NCBI RefSeq assembly: GCF_042675745.1
Contig: NZ_JBHTJM010000002.1
Location: 96,563-160,562 of the forward strand
Origin: Pseudofulvibacter geojedonensis
GTDB taxonomy: Bacteria > Bacteroidota > Bacteroidia > Flavobacteriales > Flavobacteriaceae
Direction of reading: 5' to 3'
DNA length: 64,000 nt
The notes beneath the pieces were generated by a model that did no database searches, was not told where the DNA came from, and saw only the letters and a list, made by a program, of their open reading frames with translations. Within the stretch, counting starts at the first letter, position 1, and each line of letters opens with the position of its first letter. Below, piece after piece: positions 28,075-41,164 of this stretch. The translations under genes and the position numbers were made by a program.

Positions 28075-28473
28075 ATGAAAAAAACAAAATTTGACATCAT
28101 TAAAGACTACTTAATCGAGTTAAATTACAGTATTACTCACGAAGATAAATCTAGTGGTATACTGATGATTCAAAAAGAAAGTGAAGGAATTAAAAACTTA
28201 ATTATAGGTGTTGCAGATCCTATATTAATTATAGAACAATACATTTTTAAGATCAATACTCCTTCAGAAAATATCTTTAAACAATTGTTACAAAAGAACA
28301 GAGATATTGTTCATGGAGCATTTGTTTTAGATGAAACTGGACAAAAAGTAATCTTTAGAGATAGCTTACAACTAGAAAACCTAGACCTAAACGAGCTGGA
28401 AGGAAGTATCAACTCACTTAGCTTATTGCTTAGTGAATACTCAGAACAAATATTAGAGTTCTCAAAATATTAG
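28075..28473 (+). CDS. Hypothetical cytoplasmic protein (possibly a YbjN/T3SS-chaperone-like fold)
   Basis: It is a 132-aa acidic protein and the first gene of the co-directional PspA cluster. The fold assignment is a guess. Confidence 0.5.
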   Translation: MKKTKFDIIKDYLIELNYSITHEDKSSGILMIQKESEGIKNLIIGVADPILIIEQYIFKINTPSENIFKQLLQKNRDIVHGAFVLDETGQKVIFRDSLQLENLDLNELEGSINSLSLLLSEYSEQILEFSKY

Positions 28474-28528
28474 CAATTATTTGATGTTCTGACTTCTCTA
28501 AAAGTTTAACCTAAAAAACTAACCATTT

Positions 28529-28972
28529 ATGAGAAAAGAATATCAAATAAAACATAAGCTTTTTAAAAACTTTACAGATATAATTTATAATAACCAAAAG
28601 GTAGGAGAAATTAAACGAATGTCTTGGTATGGAAATCTTAATATTACAGTTAATGAGCTTTCATATACATTTATAAGAAAAGGAGTTTTAAATCCTATCA
28701 TAGAAATTTATAATACCAATAACGAATTGTTGGGAAAAATAAAAAATAATGGTTGGGGAAAGTTAACTGTAGAATTTGAAAATAAAACCTACTTGTTTAA
28801 ACCAATAAATAGATGGACAGGAATTTGGGGACTTTTTAAAAATGAACAAAAGATAAACTCTTTTAAAAATAAATTCTTAAAAGCCAGTTTAATTGACTAC
28901 ACAAACAACTTAAAACTACTTTTAATTAGTTTATCTATAATAAACTCAAGTCAACAAGTAGTTGTAGGATAA
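28529..28972 (+). CDS. Hypothetical protein
   Basis: It is a 147-aa ORF with compatible coding periodicity and no recognisable motif. Confidence 0.45.
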   Translation: MRKEYQIKHKLFKNFTDIIYNNQKVGEIKRMSWYGNLNITVNELSYTFIRKGVLNPIIEIYNTNNELLGKIKNNGWGKLTVEFENKTYLFKPINRWTGIWGLFKNEQKINSFKNKFLKASLIDYTNNLKLLLISLSIINSSQQVVVG

Positions 28973-28997
28973 AACTAACCAATAAAAAAACAATATT

Positions 28998-29312
28998 ATG
29001 ATTATATCAACCACAGATACCGTACCAAACAAAGAAATAGTAACCATTTTAGGTGTTGCTAGAGGGAGTACCGTAAGAGCAAGAAATATAGGACGTGACA
29101 TTTTTGCTGGCCTAAAAAATATAGTAGGTGGCGAAATTGAAGAGTATACCAAGTTGCAAGCTCATGCTAGAGAACAAGCTATGCAGCGTATGATAGAAGA
29201 TGCTAGAAAACTAGGTGCAGATGCCGTAATTAATATTCGCCTTACTACTTCAATGGTTATGCAAGGTGCTTCAGAAATATTAGCCTATGGTACTGCCGTA
29301 AAATTAAGTTAG
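28998..29312 (+). CDS. YbjQ/UPF0145 (DUF74) family protein
   Basis: The 104-aa protein contains VAR..VRARNIGRDIFAGLKNIVGGEI...ADAVINIRL..., characteristic of YbjQ. Confidence 0.85.
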   Translation: MIISTTDTVPNKEIVTILGVARGSTVRARNIGRDIFAGLKNIVGGEIEEYTKLQAHAREQAMQRMIEDARKLGADAVINIRLTTSMVMQGASEILAYGTAVKLS

Positions 29313-29313
29313 T

Positions 29314-29439
29314 ATGGAAGCTGCAGCAATTGGATTTCAGTTACTAGTATGGGCTGTCATCCTCATCATATTAGTCTATTTAATTTTTAGGCGAATACGA
29401 GTTAAGAAAACAGAAAATTTTGAACATAGAGATAATTAA
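29314..29439 (+). CDS. Candidate 41-aa small membrane peptide (TM plus basic tail)
   Basis: The peptide is MEAAAIGFQLLVWAVILIILVYLIFRRIRVKKTENFEHRDN. It starts 2 nt after the ybjQ stop, lies immediately upstream of pspA, and falls below the ORF-track length cutoff. Confidence 0.35.
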   Translation: MEAAAIGFQLLVWAVILIILVYLIFRRIRVKKTENFEHRDN

Positions 29440-29461
29440 ACACAAATTAAACCAATAAATC

Positions 29462-30187
29462 ATGAATATTTTTAGAAGACTATTTAGAATAGGGAAAGCA
29501 GAAGCTAATTCTGCTATAGATAAAATGGAAGATCCCATTAAAATGACTGAACAAGGTATTAGAGATATGAAAGAAGACCTTGATAAGAGCTTAGAAGCTT
29601 TAGCACAAGTAAAAGCTATGGCTATTAGAGCTAATAACGAAAAAGAAGAGTATGCTTCTAAAGCAGAAGATTATCAAAATAAAGCAATGTTAATCTTAAA
29701 GAAAGCACAAGCTGGAGATTTAGATATAGCTGAAGGAGATCGTCTAGCTAAAGAGGCTTTAATTAAAAAAGAAGAAGCTAGTACTCATGTTGAAAGAGCT
29801 AAGGGAGAAGCAGAAAAATTTAACAAATCGGTTGCTCAATTAGAAAAGAATGTTTCTGATATCAAATCAAGCATTAGCAAGTGGGAAAACGAATTAAGAA
29901 CCCTTAAAGCTCGTGTAAAGGTTGCAGATGCAACTAAAAATGTAAACAAGCAAATGGCAGAGATTGATAGTTCTAGTACTGTTTCTATGTTAGAACGTAT
30001 GAAAGAGAAAGTAACTCAGAGTGAAGCCTTAGCTGAAGCTTACGGGGATATAGCAAATGAGTCTAAAAGCATAGACGAAGAACTAGATGCTGTTGTAGAT
30101 ACTACAGAAGCAAATGCCTTAAGCGATTTAGAAAAACTAAAAGAGCAATTAGGCATGACTGATAAAGGAGATTCTAAAGAATCTTAA
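29462..30187 (+). CDS. pspA: PspA/IM30 (Vipp1, ESCRT-III-like) phage-shock protein A
   Basis: The sequence MNIFRRLFRIGKAEANSAIDKMEDPIKMTEQGIRDMKEDL... is the canonical PspA N-terminus, and the 241-aa protein is coiled-coil throughout. Confidence 0.9.
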   Translation: MNIFRRLFRIGKAEANSAIDKMEDPIKMTEQGIRDMKEDLDKSLEALAQVKAMAIRANNEKEEYASKAEDYQNKAMLILKKAQAGDLDIAEGDRLAKEALIKKEEASTHVERAKGEAEKFNKSVAQLEKNVSDIKSSISKWENELRTLKARVKVADATKNVNKQMAEIDSSSTVSMLERMKEKVTQSEALAEAYGDIANESKSIDEELDAVVDTTEANALSDLEKLKEQLGMTDKGDSKES

Positions 30188-30216
30188 AACAAATAACTTA
30201 AACTAACTAATAATAC

Positions 30217-30939
30217 ATGAACGGACTAACTGACATATTTTTTTCCTCGGTTAATATGCCTTTAACCATTCTACTAATCATCCTATTTTTATATTGGATA
30301 TTAACTATGATGTCGGGTTTAGATTTCGATTTAGACTTTGACGTTGAAGTAGATGTGGATATTGACACTGATATAGATATAGACACCGACACAGCTTTAG
30401 ATTCAGGTAATGTATCTTTTGATGATTTTGCAAATGCAGAGGTGAAAAAAGAAGACATCTTACCAAATAGAAAAAGAGATTTAAAGTGGTGGCAGATTGT
30501 ATTGGTATACTTCAATTTTGTTGAATTACCATTTATGTTCACTTTCACTTTTTGGATTTTATGCTGGTGGTTTTTAACCGTGTTTTTTACAAATTTCACT
30601 CATAGTTATGATAATAGTTTTGGATTCATAATATTCTTCATAGCTATTATACCATCATTAATTCTAACAAAAATATTAACAAGTCCTTTTAAAAGGTTCT
30701 TTAAAAATTTTAGTAAGAAAGGAGAAGAATCATTAGACTTATTAGGGAGAAGAGGAGTTCTTATATCTAACCTTTCTGGCGACAAATTAGGATCAATGAA
30801 ATTAATTGTAGATTCTAGTCCAATTAATGTTTACTGTAAATCTCTTAACGGGGAAAAAATCAACTCAGGTCAGGAAGTTTTGATTATAAAAGAATCATCT
30901 GATAAAAAATATTATTTTATTCAATCATATAAAAATTAA
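30217..30939 (+). CDS. NfeD-like membrane protein (acidic DxD repeat, TM region, C-terminal OB-fold) partner of the flotillin
   Basis: It has N-terminal and central TMs and a C-terminal beta-barrel-like segment (GRRGVLISNLSGDKLGSMKLIVDSSPINVYCKSLNGEKINSGQEVLIIKES). It is encoded 8 nt upstream of the flotillin gene. Confidence 0.5.
   Translation: MNGLTDIFFSSVNMPLTILLIILFLYWILTMMSGLDFDLDFDVEVDVDIDTDIDIDTDTALDSGNVSFDDFANAEVKKEDILPNRKRDLKWWQIVLVYFNFVELPFMFTFTFWILCWWFLTVFFTNFTHSYDNSFGFIIFFIAIIPSLILTKILTSPFKRFFKNFSKKGEESLDLLGRRGVLISNLSGDKLGSMKLIVDSSPINVYCKSLNGEKINSGQEVLIIKESSDKKYYFIQSYKN
30322..30405. repeat. GAT/GAC-rich low-complexity tract encoding (D-x)n DFDLDFDVEVDVDIDTDIDIDTDTALD in the NfeD-like protein
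   Basis: The tract is a direct triplet repeat. The antisense frame yields a spurious SISISVSIS ORF. Confidence 0.75.
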
Positions 30940-30946
30940 CTAATTT

Positions 30947-33055
30947 ATGGACACACTAAGTACAGGAGCACAAATAGCAATTTTCGCAGTTGTTGGTGTT
31001 ATCTTTTTATTCATTGTTTTCATTGCAATTATTGCAATGTTTTACAAAAAAATTGCTCAAGGTCAAGCCTTAGTAAAGACTGGTTTTGGAGGTACAGCAG
31101 TAGCTTTCGACAAAGGTATGTATGTTATACCTGTTTTACACAAAGTAGAAATCATGGATATTTCTGTTAAAAAAATAGAAATTGAGCGTATTGGTTCTGA
31201 TGGTTTAATATGTAAAGACAACATGAGAGCGGATATTAAAGTAGCTTTCTTTGTTCGTGTTAATAAATCTAAAGATGCTATTATCGAAGTTGCTCAGACT
31301 ATTGGCTGTGAAAGAGCTTCATATATAGACACTCTTAATGAATTATTTGAAGCAAAATTCTCAGAAGGTTTAAAAACTGTAGGAAAACAATTTGAATTTA
31401 TTGAATTATATGAATCTCGCAGTGAATTTAGAGATAAAATTATTTCAGAAATAGGTCGAGATTTAAATGGATATACACTAGAAGATTGTGCTATTGATTA
31501 TTTAGAACAAACAGATGTAAACCATTTAAAATCTGATAATATTCTAGATTCTGAAGGTATCAAGAAAATTACTGAATTAACTGCTGCACAAAACATAAAA
31601 TCTAACTTAATTAAGCGTGACGAAGAGAAAACCATTCGTAAGCAAGATGTAGAAGCACGAGAAGCCATTTTAGAGTTAGACAAGCAATTAGCAGAGAAAG
31701 AAGAACAGCAAAAACGTGAGATTGCAAATATTGTATCTCGTGAAGAAGCAGAAACTTTAAAAGTTGCTGAAGAAGAGCGATTAAAGTCTGAAACGGCTAG
31801 AATAGCAACTGAAGAAAAATTACAAATTGCTGAAGAAAACAAACAACGTCAGGTAATTGTTGCAGCTAAAAACAAAGAACGTACTGATGCTGTTGAAACA
31901 GAAAGAGTAATTAAAGACCGTGATTTAGAAGCTACAGAACGTGAAAGAATTGTAACACTTGCTCAAATTGATAAAGAGAAAGCTGTAGAGGTTGAGAAGA
32001 AAAACATTCAAGATGTTATTCGTGATAGAGTAATGCTAGAAAAAGGTGTTGTTGAAGAGCAGGAAAACATGAAAGATATTGAGGCATTTAAAGGTGCCGA
32101 TCGTGAAAAGCAAGTAGCCATTACCTTAGCTGAAAAATCTGCTCAAGAGCAATTAATTAAGCGTATTAAATTAGCGGAGGCTGAAAAAGAAGCAGCTAAG
32201 CAAAAAGCCGAAGAAATTAATATTCATGCTCAAGCACAGAAAGAAGCATCTGTTAAAGAAGCAGAAGCTCGTAAAATCTTAGCAGAAGCACAAGCAAAAG
32301 AAGAAGCTACTCTAGGTATGTCTGAGGCTCAAGTAATGCATGCTAAAGCTGAAGCTAGTGAAAAGCAAGGTTTGGTTGAAGCTACTATTATAGAAAAAAC
32401 TGCTATTGCTGAAGCAGCTGGAATTGAAGCAAAAGCAGAAGCTATTAAACTTCAAGGAATTGCAGAAGCTGAAGTAATTAAAGAAAAAGCATTAGCACAA
32501 GCTAGCGGAGATAAAGAAATTGCATTTGCTGAAGCAGCTGGAATTGAAGAGAAAGCAGAAGCTATGAAGAAACTTGATGGTGTAGGTAAAGAACACGAAG
32601 AGTTTAAGTTAAAGCTTGATAAAGAATTACAAGTAGACTTAGCAGAAATCAATATCCAGAAAGATATTGCAGATGCTCAAGCAGATGTAATTGGAGAAGC
32701 GTTAAAAGCGTCTAATATCGATATTGTTGGTGGTGAGACAATGTTCTTCGATCAGATTATTGGTCAGATTACCAAGTCTAAAGGAATTGACAGGTTAGTG
32801 AACCATTCAGATAACATTACTCAAGTTAAAGACGCTATTTTAGGTAGCGATGATGTAAAAGGTAATTTATTAGACAAAATAAAAGACTTTGCAACTGAAT
32901 ATGGTATTGGATCTGAAGATATCAAAAACCTAACCATATCTAAACTATTATTAGACTTACAAGCTAAAGCTAGCTCTACAGATGAACAAAACACTTTTGG
33001 TAATCTGTTCAACCTAGCAAAAGCCTTAGGATTATCAGATAAGAAATTGAAGTAA
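30947..33055 (+). CDS. Flotillin-like SPFH/Band-7 protein (YqiK/FloT family) with a long EA-rich coiled-coil tail
   Basis: It has an N-terminal TM, an SPFH domain (GQALVKTGFGGTAVAFDKGMYVIPVLHKVEIMDISVKKIEIER...) and extended E/A/K-rich flotillin repeats (AEAAGIEAKAEAIKLQGIAEAEV...). Confidence 0.85.
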   Translation: MDTLSTGAQIAIFAVVGVIFLFIVFIAIIAMFYKKIAQGQALVKTGFGGTAVAFDKGMYVIPVLHKVEIMDISVKKIEIERIGSDGLICKDNMRADIKVAFFVRVNKSKDAIIEVAQTIGCERASYIDTLNELFEAKFSEGLKTVGKQFEFIELYESRSEFRDKIISEIGRDLNGYTLEDCAIDYLEQTDVNHLKSDNILDSEGIKKITELTAAQNIKSNLIKRDEEKTIRKQDVEAREAILELDKQLAEKEEQQKREIANIVSREEAETLKVAEEERLKSETARIATEEKLQIAEENKQRQVIVAAKNKERTDAVETERVIKDRDLEATERERIVTLAQIDKEKAVEVEKKNIQDVIRDRVMLEKGVVEEQENMKDIEAFKGADREKQVAITLAEKSAQEQLIKRIKLAEAEKEAAKQKAEEINIHAQAQKEASVKEAEARKILAEAQAKEEATLGMSEAQVMHAKAEASEKQGLVEATIIEKTAIAEAAGIEAKAEAIKLQGIAEAEVIKEKALAQASGDKEIAFAEAAGIEEKAEAMKKLDGVGKEHEEFKLKLDKELQVDLAEINIQKDIADAQADVIGEALKASNIDIVGGETMFFDQIIGQITKSKGIDRLVNHSDNITQVKDAILGSDDVKGNLLDKIKDFATEYGIGSEDIKNLTISKLLLDLQAKASSTDEQNTFGNLFNLAKALGLSDKKLK

Positions 33056-33073
33056 TTCAACTTCGTCAAAAAA

Positions 33074-33099
33074 GCTCAGTATGAATATTCATACTGAGC
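33074..33099 (+). terminator. Perfect palindrome GCTCAGTATGAAtaTTCATACTGAGC downstream of the flotillin gene (terminator-like hairpin or operator)
   Basis: It is a 12-bp perfect inverted repeat with no following U-tract, separating flotillin from the downstream operon. Confidence 0.4.
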
Positions 33100-33187
33100 A
33101 ACAGACGGAGATTTAATAAGAACTAACCGGTTGTTCTCTCCTACTTCTCTTTCGTTACTATTATTAACCTTATTAACTTAAAGAATT

Positions 33188-33469
33188 ATGGGATTTGCAC
33201 AATTCATGGTTAGCTCTATTAAGAGTAATAACCGTAGACAACAACGTGTACAATTTGATAAAGAAGACATATTAAATAGCTATACTAAAAACAAAACTAA
33301 ACCTGTTTTTAAGAAAGCAAGTCAAGAACAACTTTTGAAAATTAGAAAGCGTTTACAAAAGAGTAATCAAGTCTATCAACAAAAATTAATTGGATATACT
33401 TTTTTATCAGTCGTATTCATTGGTACGATAATCTATTATTTTAATGAAATTATTTCATTTATATTTTAA
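33188..33469 (+). CDS. Small tail-anchored membrane protein (basic N-terminus, single C-terminal TM)
   Basis: It is 93 aa, and its stop lies 3 nt before the start of the giant ATPase gene, indicating translational coupling. Confidence 0.55.
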   Translation: MGFAQFMVSSIKSNNRRQQRVQFDKEDILNSYTKNKTKPVFKKASQEQLLKIRKRLQKSNQVYQQKLIGYTFLSVVFIGTIIYYFNEIISFIF

Positions 33470-33472
33470 TAA

Positions 33473-36400
33473 ATGCAAGAAGAAAACAACCAACATACTA
33501 ACCAATTAGAAGGCGGAACTTACGAGATTATTCAATCGCGTCTTCAAAAACATAAACAAGATTTAGTAGAGCGTTTACAGAAACTAAATACTTCTAGAAA
33601 AGATGTTTTTGGAGCTGTAGAAACCAAACTAATTGCTAACGATAGAATTAATACAGAAAACACTTGTATTGCTAGAGATATTGTGGCATTGGGTACAGCT
33701 TGTTTATTTGGCTATAACGTTCATTTTGGACTTCGTACAGAAATTAAACTTTCTGATGTATTTAGCCAATATACTTTTCAAGATCAAAGTTTTCACCAGC
33801 AAGAGCTAACCTTAATAAACGACGATATATTCTTAAACGATTTTCAAAATCTATATAAATACTATCGTAACACCTTTTTTGCTAAGTTTAACCTTATTGG
33901 TAATTACCTATACATGGTCTTTCAAATAAGCGAAAACACTACCGATATTAAAACCTTTAAGTGGTTAATTAAGGATAATACTTTGGTTTATATAGATAAC
34001 CGTAGTGATCATGAATACAAGTTTCCTACTCAACATGAATTCCGTTGGCAAGAAACCAATTATGATAATCATCGTAACGGAGCTCATCCGCATGTATCTA
34101 TACTAGACAAAATATTTGTAGAAACCATTGGTGGAGACTTAACCATAAAAGTTGAAGATAATACAGATGAAGGAAAAGGTATTTTAAATGAACCTGTAGA
34201 ACATAGAGACCAAACCTTAGAAGATGGTAAATTTCTATACGCAGACTTAGGTAACCTAACTGTTTTAAGTATTACACCTTACCAGGAAACGGCTCGTTAT
34301 TTTGTATATAACCACAAAGTACAACAAGTAGAACGTATACAAAGTATAGAAGATACCGCTGTACTCCTACCCGATAATCACGGATTAATTTTTCCAGATG
34401 GTTACTACTTACAAACTGGTGAATTTAAGAAGTTTGAAAAGAGTATTGAGCAAGTAAAATTCCAGAAAAAAGTTGCCTCTCCTAATGGTGAAGATTACTT
34501 GTACGTTTTTTACGAAGAAGGTAAAGGAGATTATGTGTTAATGACTTATAACATCATTGAACAAACCATTAACACACCTATTATATGTAACGGTTACACT
34601 GTTTTAGAAAATGGGGAGTTATGCTACTTTAAATCTGAAGATGATTCTACCAAACATCATGTTGTTCAGATTTGGCAAACACCTTTTTCAAAAACGGTTC
34701 AAACCAACACTGCTCATAACGATTCTTTAATCTATAAAATAGGTAATAAAGATATTGTAAAAGCAATGGCAGAATGCCAAGAGTTAATTACGCTTTTAAA
34801 TAAAGAAGATAATTACGATGGCCTTTACGATGATATTAGTAAACAAGCTACTGATGTTTTAGATTCTTATTATTGGATTAATGAACCCGACACTTCAAAC
34901 TTAAACATTCCATTAGCAGAACTAAAATCTACTGCTAATGCAGCTATTGATGAGTTTGAAAAAGTAGTACAGTTAAAAAAAGCGGCTACTCAAGCTACTC
35001 AAGAAGTAGAGCAAGATATAAAAGACTTATTCGATAAGATTAAGCACAGTAGTTTTAAATCTATTGACGATTTTGTTGAAGTACTTACTAGATTACGTGG
35101 AGCACAAGGAGCTACCATTAGTTTAAAAGATATTCGTTATACCAATGCTACTCGTATAGAAGAGTTATCAGCTGAAATTAGCGAACAAACTGAGCGTATT
35201 TCAAGAAGATGTGTTAGTTTTCTATTAGATGAAAAAGCGCTTCTACCCTATCATAATAGATTAGAAGAAAAAGTTACTGCTTTAGAAAACATAAAAAAGG
35301 TTGTTGAAGCCAAAGAGTTAGAAGAAGAAATCAATCAGATTAGTACCGATTTAGAAATGCTAATTGACATTGTAAACAATCTTCAGATAGAAGATACTTC
35401 GCACTCTACAGCTATCATAGATACTATTTCGTTGCTTTTTGCAGAGATTAATCAGTTAAAAGCTGGTTTAAAGCGTAAAGCCAAAAGTTTAAACGAATCA
35501 GAAAGTAAAGCAGATTTTATTGCTCAGCTGAAATTATTTGATCAAAGTATTATCAACTTTATAGATATTGCTAATACGCCTGAAAAATGTGATGAATACT
35601 TAACCAAATTATCGGTTCAGTTAGAAGAGTTAGAAGGGAAATTTGCAGATTTTGATGAGTATATTACTCAAATTATCGAAAAGCGTGAAGAAGTTTACGC
35701 GGCTTTTGAAACACGTAAAAATGCATTGGTAGAAGCTAAGAATAAGAAAGCTATTACCCTACAGAATGCAGCCCAACGAATTTTAGGAAGCATATCTAAA
35801 AAAGCAGCTACCTTTAATAATGCTGAGGAAATTAACGGATATTTTGCTTCCGACTTAATGGTTAGCAAAATTCAAAGTATCATTCAACAGTTAAAAGATA
35901 TTGATGAAGTTGGTAAAGCAGAAACTTTAGAGTCTAACCTAAAAACATCTAAAGAAGAGACCGTACGTAAGCTAAAAGATAAATTAGACTTATATGAAGA
36001 CGGTGATAATGTTATTAAACTAGGTAAGCACAAGTTTGGTGTAAACAAACAACCTTTAGATTTAAACATAGTTGCTAAAAATGATGCACTTTATTTCCAT
36101 TTAACCGGTACGGATTTCTATGAAAAAATAGAGAATGACATTTTAAATACTTCACAACATATCTGGAATCAGGAATTAATTTCAGAAAATAATGAAGTAT
36201 ACCGTTCTGAATATCTAGCGTATAAAATTTATAAGGCTGAAGGTTTAAAAAAGCTATCACTTTTAAACGCCGATGATTTAACTACTTTAGTTAAAAAACA
36301 AAGTAGTGAAAACTATGCAGAAGGGTATGTAAAAGGAGTTCATGATGAAGATGCTTTAGCCTTATTAACTACTTTAATTAAAACCGAAGAAAATTTAGGT

Positions 36401-38338
36401 TTATTAAAATACAATCCAACAATTAGAGCTTATGCTCAATTGTTTTGGAATAGTTTAGAAACAGCAGATAAAGATGTCCTTAACAAACAAATAAAAGCCT
36501 CTGGAAGTGTATTAGCTTTATTTCCGGAGTCTAATGAGTTTGAATTTGTTATTGAATCTTTAGATAGTCAAATAACTAATTTCTTAGATACATGGAACCA
36601 TTCTAATGTATCTAGCAAAAGTATTGCAGAATATTTATTTCATGAATTAAATAGTGATGACAACTTTTGCATTAGTGCTCATGCTCTAGAATTAAAAGAA
36701 GCTTTTAAGGAGTATTTAAAAGTTAACAATGGTACAGCTTCTTTTCAGAATAGTTTACAATCAATAACTATTATAGAAGATAAAGTTTCTTTAGCTAAAC
36801 AATGGCTACAGTCTTTTATACAAAGTACTAACGATAATCGTTCTTTTTATAGTTACGAAACCATTGCACTTCTTTTATTTAACGGGCATGTAAACAAAAA
36901 GATAAACCATATCAATGCCATAGAAAACATTACTACTTTAAAAGGTAGTCATGGTGTAATTAAAGGGCATGACTATGAGTTTAACTATCACTTGTTTATT
37001 GAAAAATTAGAAAAATACAATAAGCAAGTAATTCAAGATTTTATAGCTTACAAAAAGGCTAAAAAAGAATTAACAGAGCAACAAAAACACACTTTAAAAT
37101 TAGAAGAGTTTAAACCTAAGGTATTATCATCTTTTGTTAGAAATAAATTAATTGATCAGGTTTATTTACCGCTGTTTGGAGATAACTTATCTAAACAATT
37201 AGGTACCGTAGGCGAAAATAAACGTACCGATCGTATGGGTATGTTATTACTAATTTCTCCACCTGGTTATGGTAAAACTACCTTAATGGAGTATATCTCT
37301 GAACGATTAGGATTGGTATTTATGAAAATAAACGGTCCGGCAATTGGTCATGAAATTACTTCGGTAGATCCTATGGCGGCAAACAACTCAGCAACTAAAC
37401 AAGAACTAGAAAAACTGAATCTTGCTTTTGAAATGGGAAACAATGTGATGTTATATTTAGACGATATTCAGCACTGTAATCCAGAGTTTTTACAGAAGTT
37501 TATTTCATTAGCCGATGGTCAGCGTAAAATTGAAGGTGTTTATAATGGGGTTACTAAAACCTACGATTTTAGAGATAAAAAGTTCTGTGTAATTATGGCG
37601 GGTAACCCATATACAGAAAGTGGAGATAAGTTTAGAATTCCAGACATGTTAGCTAACAGAGCTGACATATACAATCTAGGTGATGTAATTGGAGATTCGG
37701 CCGATCTATTTAAACTGAGTTTAATTGAAAATGCCTTAACATCAAACGATTTATTACGCCAATTAAGCAGTAAAAACTTTGATGACATTTATAGCATCAT
37801 TAACTACATAGAACAAGGTAGTGAAGGTACACTAGACTTAAAAGGAAACCACACTAAGCAAGAAGTTCAAGATTACATTTCTGTATTAGAGAAAGTATTA
37901 AGAGTACGTAACGATGTGTTAAGTGTAAACGAACAGTACATTAAGTCTGCTGCTATGGAAGATGCCTACAGAACAGAGCCGTCTTTTAAGTTACAAGGTT
38001 CGTATCGTGATATGAATAAGTTGGTAGCTAAGGTAGTTCCCATTATGAATGAAAAGGAATTAACTACACTGCTACTTTCACATTACGAAAGTGAATCGCA
38101 AACTTTAACCAGTGCTGCAGAAGCTAATTTATTAAAGTATAAAGAATTGGCTAATACCCTATCTGAAGAAGAACAACAACGTTGGGAAGCCATTAAAACT
38201 ACTTTTGTAAAGAATAACAAGCTAAAAGGTTTTGGGAGCCAAAACGAAATGGCTCAAGTATTAAGTCAGTTAATGCAATTCTCTGATAATTTAGAAGGAA
38301 TTAAAGAAGTGTTGGCAAAAGGGTTTGAAAAGGAATAA
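33473..38338 (+). CDS. Giant (1621 aa) coiled-coil protein with a C-terminal AAA_5/MoxR-class AAA+ ATPase domain
   Basis: It carries Walker A LLLISPPGYGKTTLMEYI, Walker B NVMLYLDDIQHCNPE and a sensor-1-like FCVIMAGNPYTE, with an arginine in FRIPDMLANRADIYNLGD. Upstream are a beta-rich globular region of about 350 aa and about 800 aa of heptad-rich helical sequence. Confidence 0.7.
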   Translation: MQEENNQHTNQLEGGTYEIIQSRLQKHKQDLVERLQKLNTSRKDVFGAVETKLIANDRINTENTCIARDIVALGTACLFGYNVHFGLRTEIKLSDVFSQYTFQDQSFHQQELTLINDDIFLNDFQNLYKYYRNTFFAKFNLIGNYLYMVFQISENTTDIKTFKWLIKDNTLVYIDNRSDHEYKFPTQHEFRWQETNYDNHRNGAHPHVSILDKIFVETIGGDLTIKVEDNTDEGKGILNEPVEHRDQTLEDGKFLYADLGNLTVLSITPYQETARYFVYNHKVQQVERIQSIEDTAVLLPDNHGLIFPDGYYLQTGEFKKFEKSIEQVKFQKKVASPNGEDYLYVFYEEGKGDYVLMTYNIIEQTINTPIICNGYTVLENGELCYFKSEDDSTKHHVVQIWQTPFSKTVQTNTAHNDSLIYKIGNKDIVKAMAECQELITLLNKEDNYDGLYDDISKQATDVLDSYYWINEPDTSNLNIPLAELKSTANAAIDEFEKVVQLKKAATQATQEVEQDIKDLFDKIKHSSFKSIDDFVEVLTRLRGAQGATISLKDIRYTNATRIEELSAEISEQTERISRRCVSFLLDEKALLPYHNRLEEKVTALENIKKVVEAKELEEEINQISTDLEMLIDIVNNLQIEDTSHSTAIIDTISLLFAEINQLKAGLKRKAKSLNESESKADFIAQLKLFDQSIINFIDIANTPEKCDEYLTKLSVQLEELEGKFADFDEYITQIIEKREEVYAAFETRKNALVEAKNKKAITLQNAAQRILGSISKKAATFNNAEEINGYFASDLMVSKIQSIIQQLKDIDEVGKAETLESNLKTSKEETVRKLKDKLDLYEDGDNVIKLGKHKFGVNKQPLDLNIVAKNDALYFHLTGTDFYEKIENDILNTSQHIWNQELISENNEVYRSEYLAYKIYKAEGLKKLSLLNADDLTTLVKKQSSENYAEGYVKGVHDEDALALLTTLIKTEENLGLLKYNPTIRAYAQLFWNSLETADKDVLNKQIKASGSVLALFPESNEFEFVIESLDSQITNFLDTWNHSNVSSKSIAEYLFHELNSDDNFCISAHALELKEAFKEYLKVNNGTASFQNSLQSITIIEDKVSLAKQWLQSFIQSTNDNRSFYSYETIALLLFNGHVNKKINHINAIENITTLKGSHGVIKGHDYEFNYHLFIEKLEKYNKQVIQDFIAYKKAKKELTEQQKHTLKLEEFKPKVLSSFVRNKLIDQVYLPLFGDNLSKQLGTVGENKRTDRMGMLLLISPPGYGKTTLMEYISERLGLVFMKINGPAIGHEITSVDPMAANNSATKQELEKLNLAFEMGNNVMLYLDDIQHCNPEFLQKFISLADGQRKIEGVYNGVTKTYDFRDKKFCVIMAGNPYTESGDKFRIPDMLANRADIYNLGDVIGDSADLFKLSLIENALTSNDLLRQLSSKNFDDIYSIINYIEQGSEGTLDLKGNHTKQEVQDYISVLEKVLRVRNDVLSVNEQYIKSAAMEDAYRTEPSFKLQGSYRDMNKLVAKVVPIMNEKELTTLLLSHYESESQTLTSAAEANLLKYKELANTLSEEEQQRWEAIKTTFVKNNKLKGFGSQNEMAQVLSQLMQFSDNLEGIKEVLAKGFEKE

Positions 38339-38949
38339 TGAAAAACCTTATCAAAAATGAACAAATCAAATTTAACTTTAATCCTTTTGGAGGATTAGAT
38401 GATGATGAAAATAATTTTGTTCTACAACCTGAAATAGATTTTAAAGAAGTTGAGGAGCTCTTAAAAGATAATTCTGCTATTACAATAGAATTGGTAGGAA
38501 GAAAAGGCAGAGGTAAAACCTCTCATTTAAGAGCTCTTTCAAACTACATTAAAGATTGTGAATTTATTCAGTTATCAACAACTAACAAGGCGTTTAGTAC
38601 TAATACCAAAAAGTCTATATATATTATAGATAGTATTCATCATTTAAAATTAACCAACCGTTTAAGTTTATGGAGACAAAAAAACAATTCATTTATTATC
38701 TCCACTCACATTAGTAAAAAGTTAGAATTTATAAGTACTGGTAGAAAATTTAAATCATATAAAATTGGTCAAAACTCTAAAGAAGATTTAAAACTTTTAA
38801 TTCAAAAAAGAATAGCTTTAGCTTCTAACATTAATAACTTTCATGATATAGATTTAAATAACACCTTTTTAGAAAATCTTTCTGCAAAACATAAGTCTGA
38901 TAAGCGAGCGATATTAACTAACCTTTATTCTTCATTTAAGCAAAAATGA
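38338..38949 (+). CDS. Mini P-loop NTPase (AAA+/DnaA-IstB-like Walker A GRKGRGKTSHL)
   Basis: It has Walker A VGRKGRGKTSHLRAL, Walker B-like IYIIDSIHHL and a sensor-like IISTHIS. It is 203 aa, and its start overlaps the giant gene's stop (TAATG). Confidence 0.6.
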   Translation: MKNLIKNEQIKFNFNPFGGLDDDENNFVLQPEIDFKEVEELLKDNSAITIELVGRKGRGKTSHLRALSNYIKDCEFIQLSTTNKAFSTNTKKSIYIIDSIHHLKLTNRLSLWRQKNNSFIISTHISKKLEFISTGRKFKSYKIGQNSKEDLKLLIQKRIALASNINNFHDIDLNNTFLENLSAKHKSDKRAILTNLYSSFKQK

Positions 38950-39968
38950 AAAACTTACATGAATACATTAAATTTGAATTTATCCCTAATAACACTACTT
39001 ATAAAGCCTCAGAGTTTATTATTGGTACAATAACAATTCAAGCTCTAAAAGACTTTTCTGTTGATGCTTTTGGAGTTTATTTAAAAAAGAGAATAAAGGG
39101 TCAACTATCTACACCGCCTAATCAATCTTTTAGTATTACAAATATTATTCATGAAAATATTTGGAGAGCTGGACAAATTTATGAATATAACATTGAAATA
39201 CTAATCCCTGAAAACGCTTATAGCTATTCTGGCGAAAATGTTGAAGTATTATGGGCTATCGTATTTGAATTAGACCCATCTAGTGAAACTTCTTCTACTC
39301 TCAGAAAAGATTTCCTTAAAAATGTAGAGTTTCATAGCTTATTTAAATCATTTAGTAACTTCAAACATGAGTATTATATAAACATATTACCTAAAGAAGA
39401 TAATTACGAAATTATACCTATAAAAAACTCATTAGCAAACAATAACAAAATGTTCATCATACTTGGTGTTATCATTTTAATTATTGCAACCTGTATATTT
39501 CTTTTTTTAGACAACGGATTCTTTTTTGGATTAATAATAACTGGTTTGGGTGGTTATGTACTTTATAAAAACATTTATCATACTATTAGTATTGGTAAAT
39601 TAGGAAAGATTACTTACTCTACTCATTTGCATACAGATGATGAATTCATGCTTAGATTAAGACTCTCAAACAACCAACGATCTATTAAAAAACTAAACTA
39701 TTATTGCTCTATAACCGAAAAAGTTAGAGATGATAGAGGTACTTCGACTACTACTCGTTCAGAAACAGTTTATAAAAGTCCTAAAAATACTTTTAAGCAA
39801 AGCATAAAAAAGGATAATGAATTATTAATACCATATCCTAAAAAAAGTTTTCCTATTGACATTGATATAAATGATGTTGAATTAATATGGAATGTGAATT
39901 TAGATTTTGAATTTAAAAATGATACAACCTATATTCAAAAACTCCCTATAAAAATATCAAAATCCTAA
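38946..39968 (+). CDS. Two-TM membrane protein with N- and C-terminal beta-rich soluble lobes (arrestin-/Spo0M-like guess)
   Basis: The ATGA start overlaps the previous stop. There are two central hydrophobic helices (MFIILGVIILIIATCIFLFL; FFFGLIITGLGGYVLY), and the flanking domains are beta-rich. Confidence 0.55.
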   Translation: MKNLHEYIKFEFIPNNTTYKASEFIIGTITIQALKDFSVDAFGVYLKKRIKGQLSTPPNQSFSITNIIHENIWRAGQIYEYNIEILIPENAYSYSGENVEVLWAIVFELDPSSETSSTLRKDFLKNVEFHSLFKSFSNFKHEYYINILPKEDNYEIIPIKNSLANNNKMFIILGVIILIIATCIFLFLDNGFFFGLIITGLGGYVLYKNIYHTISIGKLGKITYSTHLHTDDEFMLRLRLSNNQRSIKKLNYYCSITEKVRDDRGTSTTTRSETVYKSPKNTFKQSIKKDNELLIPYPKKSFPIDIDINDVELIWNVNLDFEFKNDTTYIQKLPIKISKS

Positions 39969-41038
39969 AACAACTCTAATTGCCCACTCTTATATTGAGC
40001 ATGCAAACTCGTATTCAATTTAGGCATTTTTTTTCCTTTAAAATATTTAAAACGAGCCATAGTAACTAAATCATTTATCTGCTTGGCTATATTACCTTCT
40101 CCCCTCATTCTATTACCATAACGACTATCGTTTAAAGTTCCTCCATGGCAATCGGCAATTTGATTGAGTACTTTCTCTGCTTTATCGGGTAATGTTTTAT
40201 GAATCCAATCGGTAAAAATTTCTCCAATAGCACCATTTAACCTTACAATAGTATGACCAATAGACAATGCTCCTGCTTCAGATACTGCTTTGGCTAGAGG
40301 CAATACTTCATGACTATTAATAGCAGGAATTAAAGGTGCTAACATAGCGTTTACTGGTACTCCATTATCAGAAAGTATTTTAATAGCCTTTAAACGTTTT
40401 TGTATACTGGCTGTTCTGGGTTCTAAAACCCTCCTAGTTTCTTCAGACAATGATGTAACCGACACATTAACTGCTATTAAATTGTCTTTAGCTAACTCTG
40501 TAAGGATATCAAGATCTCTCAGTATTAAAGCGTTTTTAGTAATAATAGCTACTGGGTGTTTATACCTTAGAAAAACTTCTAAACACTTTCGAGTTATTTC
40601 ATATCTTTTTTCAGCAGGCTGATAACAATCTGTATTACCAGAAAGTACTATTGGGTAAGCTTGCCAAGATTTCTTCTTTAACATTGCTTCTAACAACTTA
40701 GGAGCATCTTTCTTAACCAATATCTTTCTTTCAAAATCCAGTCCAGCACTATATCCCCAATACTCATGGGTATTACGAGCAAAACAGTAAATACAACCGT
40801 GTTCGCATCCTTGATACGGATTCATAGAATATTGCATTCCTACATCAGGACTTTTAACTTTATTCACAATTGTTTTAGGGAAAACATCTATAAACTGTGT
40901 TTTGTTTTTATCTGCTTCTTCTTGTTCTTTGTAACAGAATTCTAAAAAATCATCACGTATTTCATGACTCAACTCAAAAAATCGGTTGTGTACATTTTTT
41001 TGGGCGCCTCGCCCTTTTATAGGTGATTTAGAATTCAT
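39965..41038 (-). CDS. Radical SAM protein, PA0069/SplB-like family (COG1533)
   Basis: It has a CxxxCxxC cluster (GCEHGCIYCFAR), and its N-terminus KGRGAQKNVHNRF is typical of this family. Confidence 0.7.
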   Translation of the reverse strand: MNSKSPIKGRGAQKNVHNRFFELSHEIRDDFLEFCYKEQEEADKNKTQFIDVFPKTIVNKVKSPDVGMQYSMNPYQGCEHGCIYCFARNTHEYWGYSAGLDFERKILVKKDAPKLLEAMLKKKSWQAYPIVLSGNTDCYQPAEKRYEITRKCLEVFLRYKHPVAIITKNALILRDLDILTELAKDNLIAVNVSVTSLSEETRRVLEPRTASIQKRLKAIKILSDNGVPVNAMLAPLIPAINSHEVLPLAKAVSEAGALSIGHTIVRLNGAIGEIFTDWIHKTLPDKAEKVLNQIADCHGGTLNDSRYGNRMRGEGNIAKQINDLVTMARFKYFKGKKMPKLNTSLHAQYKSGQLELF

Positions 41039-41164
41039 GAGTTTAATAAAACAATCTAGGAATGGTTATAAAATTACTGCTTAATTCTTCATGAAAATGT
41101 TAAAACCAAACTAGGTTATTAACAAATTAAATTGGTACTTTTACCTAAGTAATAAAACCTACTG

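Follow-up and report, generated by a model that had tools for sequence, protein, structure and literature searches.

Do four genes that overlap or nearly touch one another encode a single molecular machine, or do they belong to separate systems that adjoin? The question is raised by positions 33188–39968 of a 64-kb stretch of chromosomal DNA from Pseudofulvibacter geojedonensis (the window, i.e. the whole stretch of DNA that was analysed), in which a first-pass annotation, made from the letters alone, had read four open reading frames (ORFs), including that of a giant AAA+ ATPase, as one obligately co-translated unit, the two NTPases and two membrane anchors of which would make up a membrane-associated machine driven by energy. 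Two of the four products, p203 and p340, were 100% identical to NCBI proteins of this species. The comparative analysis points to a different arrangement, in which the four ORFs are the ends of two independent modules joined head to tail in this lineage. The giant ATPase is read as the last gene of a PspA–flotillin membrane-stress operon (module A, 28075–38338), and p203 and p340 as a separate pair (module B). To this reading as a whole, together with the mechanism proposed below, a probability of roughly 60% was assigned. The four genes are:

33188–33469, + strand: p93 (93 amino acids, aa), small tail-anchored membrane protein, clade-specific, its N-terminal half basic (homologues, ω)
33473–38338, + strand: giant DUF3686–coiled-coil–AAA+ ATPase (1621 aa), terminal gene of module A (Pfam, homologue searches, motif alignment)
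38338–38949, + strand: p203 (203 aa), minimal initiator/switch-type AAA+ ATPase, 5' gene of module B (fold, family motifs)
38946–39968, + strand: p340 (340 aa), predicted arrestin-type N-lobe, transmembrane (TM) hairpin and beta-rich C-lobe, second gene of module B (family homology, structural model)

Coordinates and junctions were read directly from the DNA and were as first described: p93 and the giant gene are separated by a gap of 3 nucleotides (nt; TAA-TAA-ATG), the giant gene and p203 overlap by 1 nt (TAATG), and p203 and p340 by 4 nt (ATGA). All four are real genes, because each is under purifying selection against its closest homologues, with ratios of nonsynonymous to synonymous divergence (ω) of 0.12–0.48 (p93, 0.19–0.48; p203, 0.12–0.13; p340, 0.13–0.45).

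Conserved synteny of the giant ATPase with a flotillin and an NfeD-like gene

Upstream of p93, on the same strand, lie the genes that form module A together with the giant ATPase, in the order CesT/Tir chaperone, PspA, YqiJ/NfeD-like membrane protein, flotillin as SPFH scaffold, and the 1621-aa ATPase:

28075–28473, + strand: CesT/Tir-like chaperone, first gene of module A (Pfam CesT_Tir_1, E 2.5e-57)
29462–30187, + strand: PspA/IM30, bacterial ESCRT-III superfamily (Pfam PspA_IM30, E 1.7e-45)
30217–30939, + strand: YqiJ/YuaF (NfeD-like) multi-TM partner of flotillin (homology, synteny)
30947–33055, + strand: flotillin-like SPFH scaffold with an N-terminal TM segment and a long Glu/Ala/Lys-rich helical region (homology)

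That PspA, NfeD-like and flotillin genes precede the giant gene had already been proposed. PspA was recovered directly by Pfam, whereas the other two were identified through annotated or Pfam-matching homologues, the window flotillin and NfeD-like proteins themselves giving no Pfam Band_7, Flot or NfeD match even at E ≤ 10 and no useful relative in sequence searches of the PDB. Homologues of the flotillin in Pseudomonadota, Actinomycetota and Deinococcota were 35–46% identical to it over >600 aa; two of these homologues carry the RefSeq names 'flotillin family' or 'SPFH domain-containing', and two of ten scanned family members matched Band_7 (best E 1.3e-12). For the NfeD-like family, three of ten scanned members matched YqiJ_N (two) or NfeD (one), and a RefSeq homologue of the window protein is named DUF1449. 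Annotation pipelines relying on the Band_7, Flot or NfeD models would overlook this SPFH context of the giant ATPase (30217–33055).

For the genome scan, one genome per species was taken, which gave 31 giant loci of 45–87% identity (related loci are cited below by their L numbers), and the window proteins were compared with the ORFs of these loci by local blastp. A YqiJ/NfeD-like gene followed by a flotillin gene lay directly 5' of the giant gene in 24/24 genome loci with enough upstream sequence, with only small or mobile inserts between flotillin and ATPase; two further contigs end inside the flotillin gene. The same triad was found in L032 and L038, thus extending to metagenome relatives and Aquimarina, in three plasmid records (Pseudomonas, i.e. 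pQBR103 of Pseudomonas fluorescens SBW25; Streptomyces; Deinococcus) and in five further distant records (Proteus mirabilis, Nonomuraea, Halomonas, Vibrio campbellii, Hymenobacter). In total, flotillin stood upstream of the giant gene in 34/34 loci from at least four named phyla and from metagenome-assembled genomes (MAGs) assigned elsewhere; the NfeD-like gene 5' of flotillin was detected by blastp in 30 of these loci and placed by position only in the remaining four. A CesT–PspA pair occurred in ~20 of the 34 (~60%), with a CesT/Tir orthologue upstream of PspA in 17 of the 24 genome loci, and in distant phyla the ATPase is likewise the final gene of the unit. The invariant core of module A across phyla is thus the NfeD-like gene, flotillin and the ATPase, so that the link to PspA and flotillin, originally offered as pure speculation, became the best-supported part of the first-pass annotation.

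Domain architecture of the giant ATPase

Pfam DUF3686 (PF12458) covered aa 30–467 of the giant protein (E 1.4e-178, profile positions 1–448 of 448), DUF7902 (PF25472) aa 588–671 and AAA_5 aa 1258–1381 (34 bits vs a cut-off of 22); the AAA model also matched (27.8 bits vs 21.2). The region of aa ~480–840 is poor in Pro and Gly and rich in Glu, Lys, Gln and Leu, a composition consistent with a long arm of helical or coiled-coil structure. At E ≤ 1e-10 the family comprised 5227 database proteins, mostly named 'DNA repair ATPase' in RefSeq, and the N-domain search gave 709 clusters (50% identity, E ≤ 0.001). Homologues in the representative search were mostly ~1600–1900 aa long, the remainder looking like fragments, and each of the 120 close homologues listed had 1604–1659 aa.

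For the motif comparison, 20 homologues (47–86% identical over the C-terminal region) from Bacteroidota, Pseudomonadota, Actinomycetota, Deinococcota and MAGs labelled Verrucomicrobiota and Chitinispirillaceae were aligned. SPPGYGKT, YLDDIQH, MAGNPYTE..G..F.IPDMLANR and a C-terminal RTEP.F.LQGSYR were invariant, and the protein therefore carries one intact C-terminal AAA+ module, not a degenerate one, with Walker A, Walker B, sensor 1 and Arg all in place and a sensor-1/Arg signature that, by its motifs, is of the MoxR/AAA_5 kind. This bears out the GYGKTT, LDDIQH, MAGNP and IPDMLANR motifs picked out beforehand, as well as the three-part reading of the protein, in which a helical or coiled-coil stretch lies between a beta-rich N-domain and a complete AAA_5-type module; that DUF3686 is a beta-propeller is an assignment by Ravi et al. 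2024 (PMC11237479). PDB sequence searches with the whole protein, its AAA profile and its N-domain profile returned no relative beyond P-loop-level matches, the N-domain profile finding nothing. The accompanying claim that the protein matches no characterised family stood in one respect, in that the family is experimentally uncharacterised, and fell in another, in that it is covered by the Pfam models DUF3686, DUF7902 and AAA, has more than 5000 homologues and belongs to an operon already published in silico.

The p203–p340 pair as an autonomous module

The fold of p203 consists of an AAA+ core and a lid, with a sensor-2 Arg besides Walker A and Walker B, which agrees with its earlier reading as a minimal DnaA/IstB-like P-loop protein and may be put more precisely as a Cdc6/ORC/DnaA-like mini AAA+ ATPase. 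Its family comprised 126 detectable members of ~200 aa, those with names being from Bacteroidota. Walker A (GRKGRGKT) and the Walker B Asp (IIDS) were invariant in 74 members, as were N15-P16 in an NPFGG segment at the position of the AAA+ N-linker, the GRGK of Walker A and His124 at the sensor-1 position. The Walker B Asp is followed by Ser and not by Glu; since the motif reads D-S rather than D-E, p203 is probably a nucleotide-dependent switch and not a motor. Comparison with the DnaA, Cdc6 and IstB profiles gave nothing significant, a PDB sequence search with the p203 profile gave only P-loop-level matches, and neither a DNA-binding or winged-helix domain nor an initiator-specific motif was found, the protein ending after the lid at residue 203. 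Structural neighbours include the STAND NTPases CED-4, Avs5, NOD2 and NLRP3, and there was a weak nSTAND3 match. Derivation of p203 by duplication of the AAA module of the giant protein was considered and rejected (hhalign probability 16%).

In p340, two adjacent hydrophobic helices (residues 160–187 and 191–217 of the model) lie between two beta-rich lobes, as the earlier description of a two-TM protein with two beta lobes had it. A word-indexed search found only four homologues; the family derived from the p203 loci aligned over its full length at 14–27% identity, with an invariant SY.G in the N-lobe and a conserved E-x-V-x-D-x-RGT in the C-lobe. Eleven of 21 members matched Pfam Arrestin_N (E ≤ 1), three of them above the gathering score (L058, 41 bits; L061, 50 bits; L080, 28 bits; cut-off 24.9), seven matched Vps26 and two Spo0M. 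All of these matches fell in the N-lobe, to which the Arrestin_C matches also mapped, and the C-lobe gave a weak match to the C-terminal part of Rgp1 (E 0.0047). By family homology, p340 is thus assigned to the arrestin clan, with a TM hairpin predicted to be inserted between the lobes. Both lobes probably lie in the cytoplasm, where p203 is, because the protein has no signal peptide.

A p340 homologue was the next gene 3' of p203, on the same strand, in 28 of the 29 loci with sufficient downstream DNA, the exception being L068, in which the next ORF is unrelated and without a TM segment. The p340 homologues in these pairs have 326–354 aa and a start that usually overlaps the p203 stop. Among more distant, GC-rich versions outside the AT-rich Bacteroidota set (metagenome contigs L058–L062, L069 and L073–L075) are p340 homologues of 500–590 aa with a C-terminal extension; the clearest Arrestin_N/Spo0M matches were among these versions (tested for L058 and L061), and the arrestin–TM proteins of L059, L062, L069 and L073–L075 carry a Pro/Glu-rich linker and a conserved C-terminal domain of ~100 aa.

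The pair was found to be largely separate from the giant ATPase. A p203 homologue was detected in none of 39 independently sampled giant loci (34 searched with the family hidden Markov model, five more by blastp). Among the 31 loci of the genome scan, blastp found p203 in none, p340 in L003 only, where it stands without p203, and p93 in L001 and L003 only. The giant gene adjoined the pair solely in the clade of the window (L032, L033, L034, L041, L042) and in Aquimarina rubra. In ~20 other contexts, including that of Bizionia, also a member of the Flavobacteriaceae, the pair stood without a giant ATPase, flotillin or PspA in the flanks fetched (7–10 kb where the contig allowed), and its neighbours were unrelated housekeeping genes (tRNA synthetases, dehydrogenases, methylenetetrahydrofolate reductase, OmpA-family proteins). 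An OmpA-family gene on the opposite strand adjoined the pair in L040, L076 and L077, i.e. in three of ~10 annotated stand-alone contexts; as such genes are abundant in Bacteroidota, this adjacency may be due to chance.

The region between the giant stop and MeaB (window 38339–41164) was then compared with its counterpart in the near-identical L034 (1281–5657). Nucleotide identity was 94.6% for the 3' end of the giant gene, 92.9% for MeaB and 96.0% for the amidohydrolase gene vs 73.5% for the pair. Synonymous divergence (dS) was 1.06 for p203 and 1.90 for p340 vs 0.31, 0.27 and 0.15 for the three flanking genes in the same order, i.e. 3–12 times that of the flanks, with ω ~0.13. The discontinuity of dS (1.1–1.9 vs 0.15–0.31) indicates that the pair is a cassette that was replaced by a diverged allele. 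In L034, the giant gene and the pair are separated by three additional genes, which encode a 2-TM protein of 101 aa, a protein of 82 aa and a TM+TPR protein of 717 aa; L034 also lacks the convergent radical-SAM gene of the window:

39965–41038, − strand: radical-SAM gene, its end overlapping the p340 stop by 4 nt

Other close relatives have different cargo at this site or lead directly into a DUF4178–DUF350–spermine-synthase module. The 3' flank of the giant gene is a variable islet, because its content differs between close relatives. By these sequence comparisons, the pair appears as an autonomous, exchangeable cassette that has not co-evolved with the giant ATPase.

Proposed mechanism

For module A, we infer that the giant protein assembles an AAA+ ring through its single intact AAA_5-type module, from which helical arms of ~700 residues would project the beta-rich DUF3686 domains. 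The binding partner of these domains may be the flotillin assembly in the cytoplasm or PspA polymers recruited to it, and ATP hydrolysis would serve to assemble, remodel or disassemble the sub-membrane scaffolds, or to extract clients. Such remodelling would be functionally analogous to that of ESCRT-III by Vps4, or to the action of FtsH inside HflK/C cages. For module B, p203 would be a switch ATPase controlling the membrane-anchored p340, the arrestin-like N-lobe and the beta-rich C-lobe of which would face the cytoplasm on either side of the TM hairpin; the cassette sits in the variable islet 3' of the giant gene, where recombination has swapped it.

Several points weigh against these readings. 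The mechanism of module A is inferred from gene order and fold; PspA is missing from ~40% of the loci and may be a frequent neighbour of the flotillin triad rather than the substrate of the ATPase. The p340 of the window has no direct Pfam match and its AlphaFold2 model is poor (predicted local distance difference test score 52), so that it is assigned to the arrestin clan through transitive homology, with weak indications as to how its C-lobe folds. Finally, the TAATG-type junction between the giant gene and p203 recurs in form in Aquimarina, there with a gap of 2 nt, and there is a small chance that modules A and B are functionally linked in the Pseudofulvibacter and Aquimarina clades.

In one elaboration of this last point, the pair would be a prokaryotic system in which an ATP-switch AAA+ protein governs a membrane-embedded arrestin-fold adaptor, recruited to the PspA–flotillin–AAA+ operon in Pseudofulvibacter and Aquimarina. 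We regard this as quite improbable; if it were true, the pair, translationally coupled to the giant ATPase, could pick membrane cargo or damage sites for the PspA–flotillin machinery and would parallel, in bacteria, the route that leads from arrestin-related adaptors to ESCRT in eukaryotes.

Alternative explanations

MoxR-class ATPases are maturation chaperones, and the giant protein could accordingly be an unfoldase or disaggregase for membrane-protein clients gathered by flotillin microdomains, with DUF3686 binding the client or an adaptor. The AAA_5/MoxR-type motifs and the co-encoded CesT/Tir chaperone fit such a role, as does a report (PMC11222466) that bacterial flotillin holds unfolded proteins within membrane microdomains and stabilises them. 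It is with the flotillin/NfeD pair, however, that the giant ATPase is in strict and exclusive synteny, and not with a candidate client, a protease or a von Willebrand factor A (vWA) adaptor. The computational evidence fits this chaperone model and scaffold remodelling alike and cannot distinguish between them; taken by itself, the chaperone model, the chief competitor of scaffold remodelling, was judged possible, if on the unlikely side.

For the pair, a conflict system was considered, in which p203, as a STAND/ORC-like ATPase, would sense an invader and trigger p340 as a membrane-damaging effector in anti-phage defence or abortive infection. The two-gene architecture of NTPase and TM protein, the islet that varies between genomes 93–96% identical, the allelic replacement, the scattered genomic positions and the STAND-type structural neighbours and weak nSTAND3 match of p203 would suit this idea. 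A defence scan was run with PADLOC-DB v2.0.0, using the four proteins and both families of the pair. p93 and p340 had no match, none of the 21 p340-family members matched any of the 5027 models, p203 and its family gave weak, scattered and generic P-loop matches, and the giant protein matched IetA over 31 residues at the P-loop. Scans of the IMG/VR viral contigs with the p203 family and the AAA region of the giant protein found no relatives. The neighbours of the pair are housekeeping and not defence genes, with one exception in L079, where an McrBC gene lies at a distance of 6 kb, and ω ~0.13 reflects ordinary purifying and not diversifying selection. The window itself is not a defence island, its surroundings being housekeeping in character (SecA, ABC-F, Wzc-like kinase, type IX secretion system cargo, MeaB, amidohydrolase, MATE transporter). 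A conflict function of the pair is to be taken seriously as an alternative but was rated unlikely, and the variant of the first-pass annotation in which all four genes form one anti-phage or abortive-infection-type machine found no support: no specific PADLOC match, a housekeeping window and nothing in viral contigs.

The single machine of four parts, from which the question arose, has in its favour the tight or overlapping junctions of this genome and the recurrence of the order p93-like gene, giant gene, p203, p340 in Aquimarina rubra and the metagenome relatives L032, L033, L041 and L042. Against it stand the 39 sampled giant loci with p203 in none, p340 in one and p93 in two, the ~20 contexts of the pair without a giant gene, p340 without p203 in L003, the three genes inserted in L034, the raised dS of the pair and the lack of a specific relationship between p203 and the AAA+ domain of the giant protein. 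The distribution already implies that in most taxa the giant ATPase works normally alongside flotillin in the absence of p93, p203 and p340. Whether the four genes always co-occur was the check proposed for the operon, and they do not, gene neighbourhoods dividing them into two modules; one conserved four-gene unit had to be given up, and a four-part machine was considered very improbable.

A DNA-repair function of the giant ATPase, suggested by its database labels (PF12458 'ATPase involved in DNA repair'; RefSeq 'DNA repair ATPase') and by weak matches of the Walker A region to RuvB, deserves next to no credence, since the RuvB matches span ~45 residues around the P-loop (22 bits vs a family cut-off of 282), the Pfam scan of the giant protein shows no DNA-binding or nuclease domain, each conserved neighbour is a membrane-scaffold gene, and a literature search for DUF3686 or PF12458 returned no paper.

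Relation to known systems

Ravi et al. 2024 (mSystems, PMC11237479) described, in silico, an operon of CesT/Tir, PspA, Band-7/flotillin, YqiJ/YuaF and a 'novel AAA+ ATPase', with an example from Dokdonia donghaensis (ANH61663.1) listed as 'Betapropeller+Coiled-coil+AAA-ATPase' and a proposed role in membrane dynamics, i.e. in the dynamics of sub-membrane assemblies analogous to ESCRT. Module A shares with it the gene set and order, the ATPase architecture (beta-rich N-domain, coiled coil, AAA+) and the family Flavobacteriaceae; in the window, the CesT/Tir–PspA pair lies upstream on the same strand, flotillin and the YqiJ-like gene were recognised by orthology, and the giant ATPase shares 66% identity with its Dokdonia orthologue. 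The giant ATPase is thus a new member of a family known in silico, and its link to PspA and flotillin has likewise been published in silico. The published description lacks the 93-aa tail-anchored gene, the insert of YbjQ and a 41-aa peptide, and the pair of p203 and p340, which are lineage-specific and either add to that operon or lie next to it.

With Vps4, module A has in common an AAA+ ATPase gene near a gene of the ESCRT-III superfamily (PspA) and the proposed nucleotide-driven remodelling of a membrane-bound polymer. The giant protein differs in that it has no MIT match, carries motifs of AAA_5/MoxR and not of the classical clade, is four times larger and has flotillin, not PspA, as its invariant neighbour; its matches to Vps4-related classical AAA structures were limited to ~35 residues at Walker A. 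It is at most an analogue of Vps4, with no homology beyond the AAA+ fold.

HflK/C–FtsH is an SPFH cage that encloses an AAA+ protease at the inner membrane, and as in module A an SPFH-family scaffold is coupled, genetically or physically, to an AAA+ enzyme. The giant protein, however, has neither a protease domain nor a predicted TM segment, and the SPFH assembly of the window flotillin would be cytoplasmic and not periplasmic, judging by its N-terminal TM topology. With MoxR/RavA, the giant protein shares the AAA_5 match above cut-off and the sensor-1/Arg region NP.TE..G....P..L.NR; it differs by ~1200 extra N-terminal residues and by an operon without a vWA-domain partner. The absence of such a partner had been remarked on before and holds for the 10 listed ORFs between 28075 and 39968.

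For module B, p340 differs from the arrestin clan (arrestin, alpha-arrestin, Vps26, Rgp1, bacterial Spo0M), the known members of which are soluble, by its two-helix TM hairpin between the lobes and by the pairing of its family with a mini AAA+ gene. p203 differs from the initiator and switch AAA+ proteins (Cdc6/ORC, DnaA/Hda, MuB, clamp-loader subunits) in its size of only ~200 residues, the D-S of Walker B and the invariant His at sensor-1, and in sequence searches it was significantly related to none of these families. Literature searches for 'DNA repair ATPase' with flotillin and for arrestin-like with AAA+ in Bacteroidetes gave no papers, and the AAA+/arrestin pair had no match in the literature searched; the pair of a mini AAA+ protein and a TM-split arrestin-like protein is apparently undescribed.

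Inserts and small elements of the locus

Besides the conserved genes, module A of the window contains three lineage-specific inserts: a 147-aa ORF, a YbjQ gene with a 41-aa TM peptide, and p93.

28529–28972, + strand: 147-aa beta-rich orphan ORF between CesT/Tir and YbjQ, without Pfam match
28998–29312, + strand: YbjQ-family protein, movable insert in module A (Pfam YbjQ_1, E 1e-39)
29314–29439, + strand: previously unlisted 41-aa single-TM mini-ORF that travels with YbjQ (translation MEAAAIGFQLLVWAVILIILVYLIFRRIRVKKTENFEHRDN)
33074–33099: perfect palindromic hairpin with an 11-bp stem in the flotillin–p93 interval (GCTCAGTATGA-ATAT-TCATACTGAGC)

No homologue of the 147-aa ORF was found in any of 31 related loci. 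YbjQ is placed differently within the operon in L003, L009 and L038, and in all three the 41-aa peptide is kept directly 3' of it, with a common C-terminal KTExFExRDN motif.

p93 is a clade-specific insert. Its homologues, which share the single C-terminal hydrophobic segment, are confined to the closest clade and, weakly, to Aquimarina, and always occupy the same site between flotillin and the giant gene (L001, L003 and L032, 56–62% identity; L038, 32%); most giant loci lack it. Without p93, this gap is empty or holds GIY-YIG, DUF559, YbjQ or beta-lactamase-like genes or small transposase-like ORFs. Selfish-looking inserts occupied it in L007, L008, L010, L011, L014, L016, L019, L032 and L038, among them GIY-YIG genes (by Pfam, L032) and a DUF559/MTES_1575 gene (L038); the likeness of the small ORFs to transposases of the REP-associated or IS200 type was judged by eye only. 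This gap is a possible hotspot for insertions.

The hairpin at 33074–33099 starts 19 nt past the flotillin stop, and since on the + strand an A-run precedes it and no T-run follows, it is not a canonical terminator of that strand. A repeated, REP-like element was considered and rejected, as the window contains the hairpin only once. Placed between the genes of the abundant scaffold on one side and the giant gene on the other, it may act within the operon as an attenuator or RNA stabiliser.

No Bacteroidota-type TAnnTTTG promoter motif was found in the intergenic gaps of the operon, and a sigma-70 scan stayed below the expectation from shuffled sequence. The only TAnnTTTG match in or near the operon (TACTTTTG, 38200–38207, + strand) lies inside the 3' end of the giant gene, 138 nt upstream of the p203 start, and could be an internal promoter for p203 and p340 or a chance occurrence.

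A polyamine-type, PspA-associated module follows the giant gene, directly or after islet cargo, in L001, L002, L003, L010, L013, L018 and L032/L033. In its fullest form (L032) it comprises DUF4178, a lipoprotein, DUF350 (8-TM), a 7-TM spermine-synthase-like gene, S-adenosylmethionine decarboxylase and a K+ channel. The DUF4178–DUF350–spermine-synthase module is absent from the whole window.

Implications

According to a 2025 review, a Vps4-like ATPase appears to be absent in bacteria and the roles of the Band-7/flotillin partners of PspA are undetermined; the same review cites B. subtilis, in which the attachment of PspA to the membrane requires an SPFH protein. As a candidate energy source at flotillin/PspA scaffolds, the DUF3686 ATPase is the most consistent one. 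The present analysis sharpens the target, the invariant partner being the NfeD-like–flotillin pair (34/34) and PspA a partner in only ~60% of loci, with the ATPase motifs intact, and it corrects the misleading database name 'DNA repair ATPase'. The triad is carried by tractable hosts, namely Proteus mirabilis, Vibrio campbellii and, on plasmid pQBR103, Pseudomonas fluorescens SBW25. The exchangeable AAA+/arrestin cassette, in turn, would be an entry point to bacterial arrestin-fold biology.

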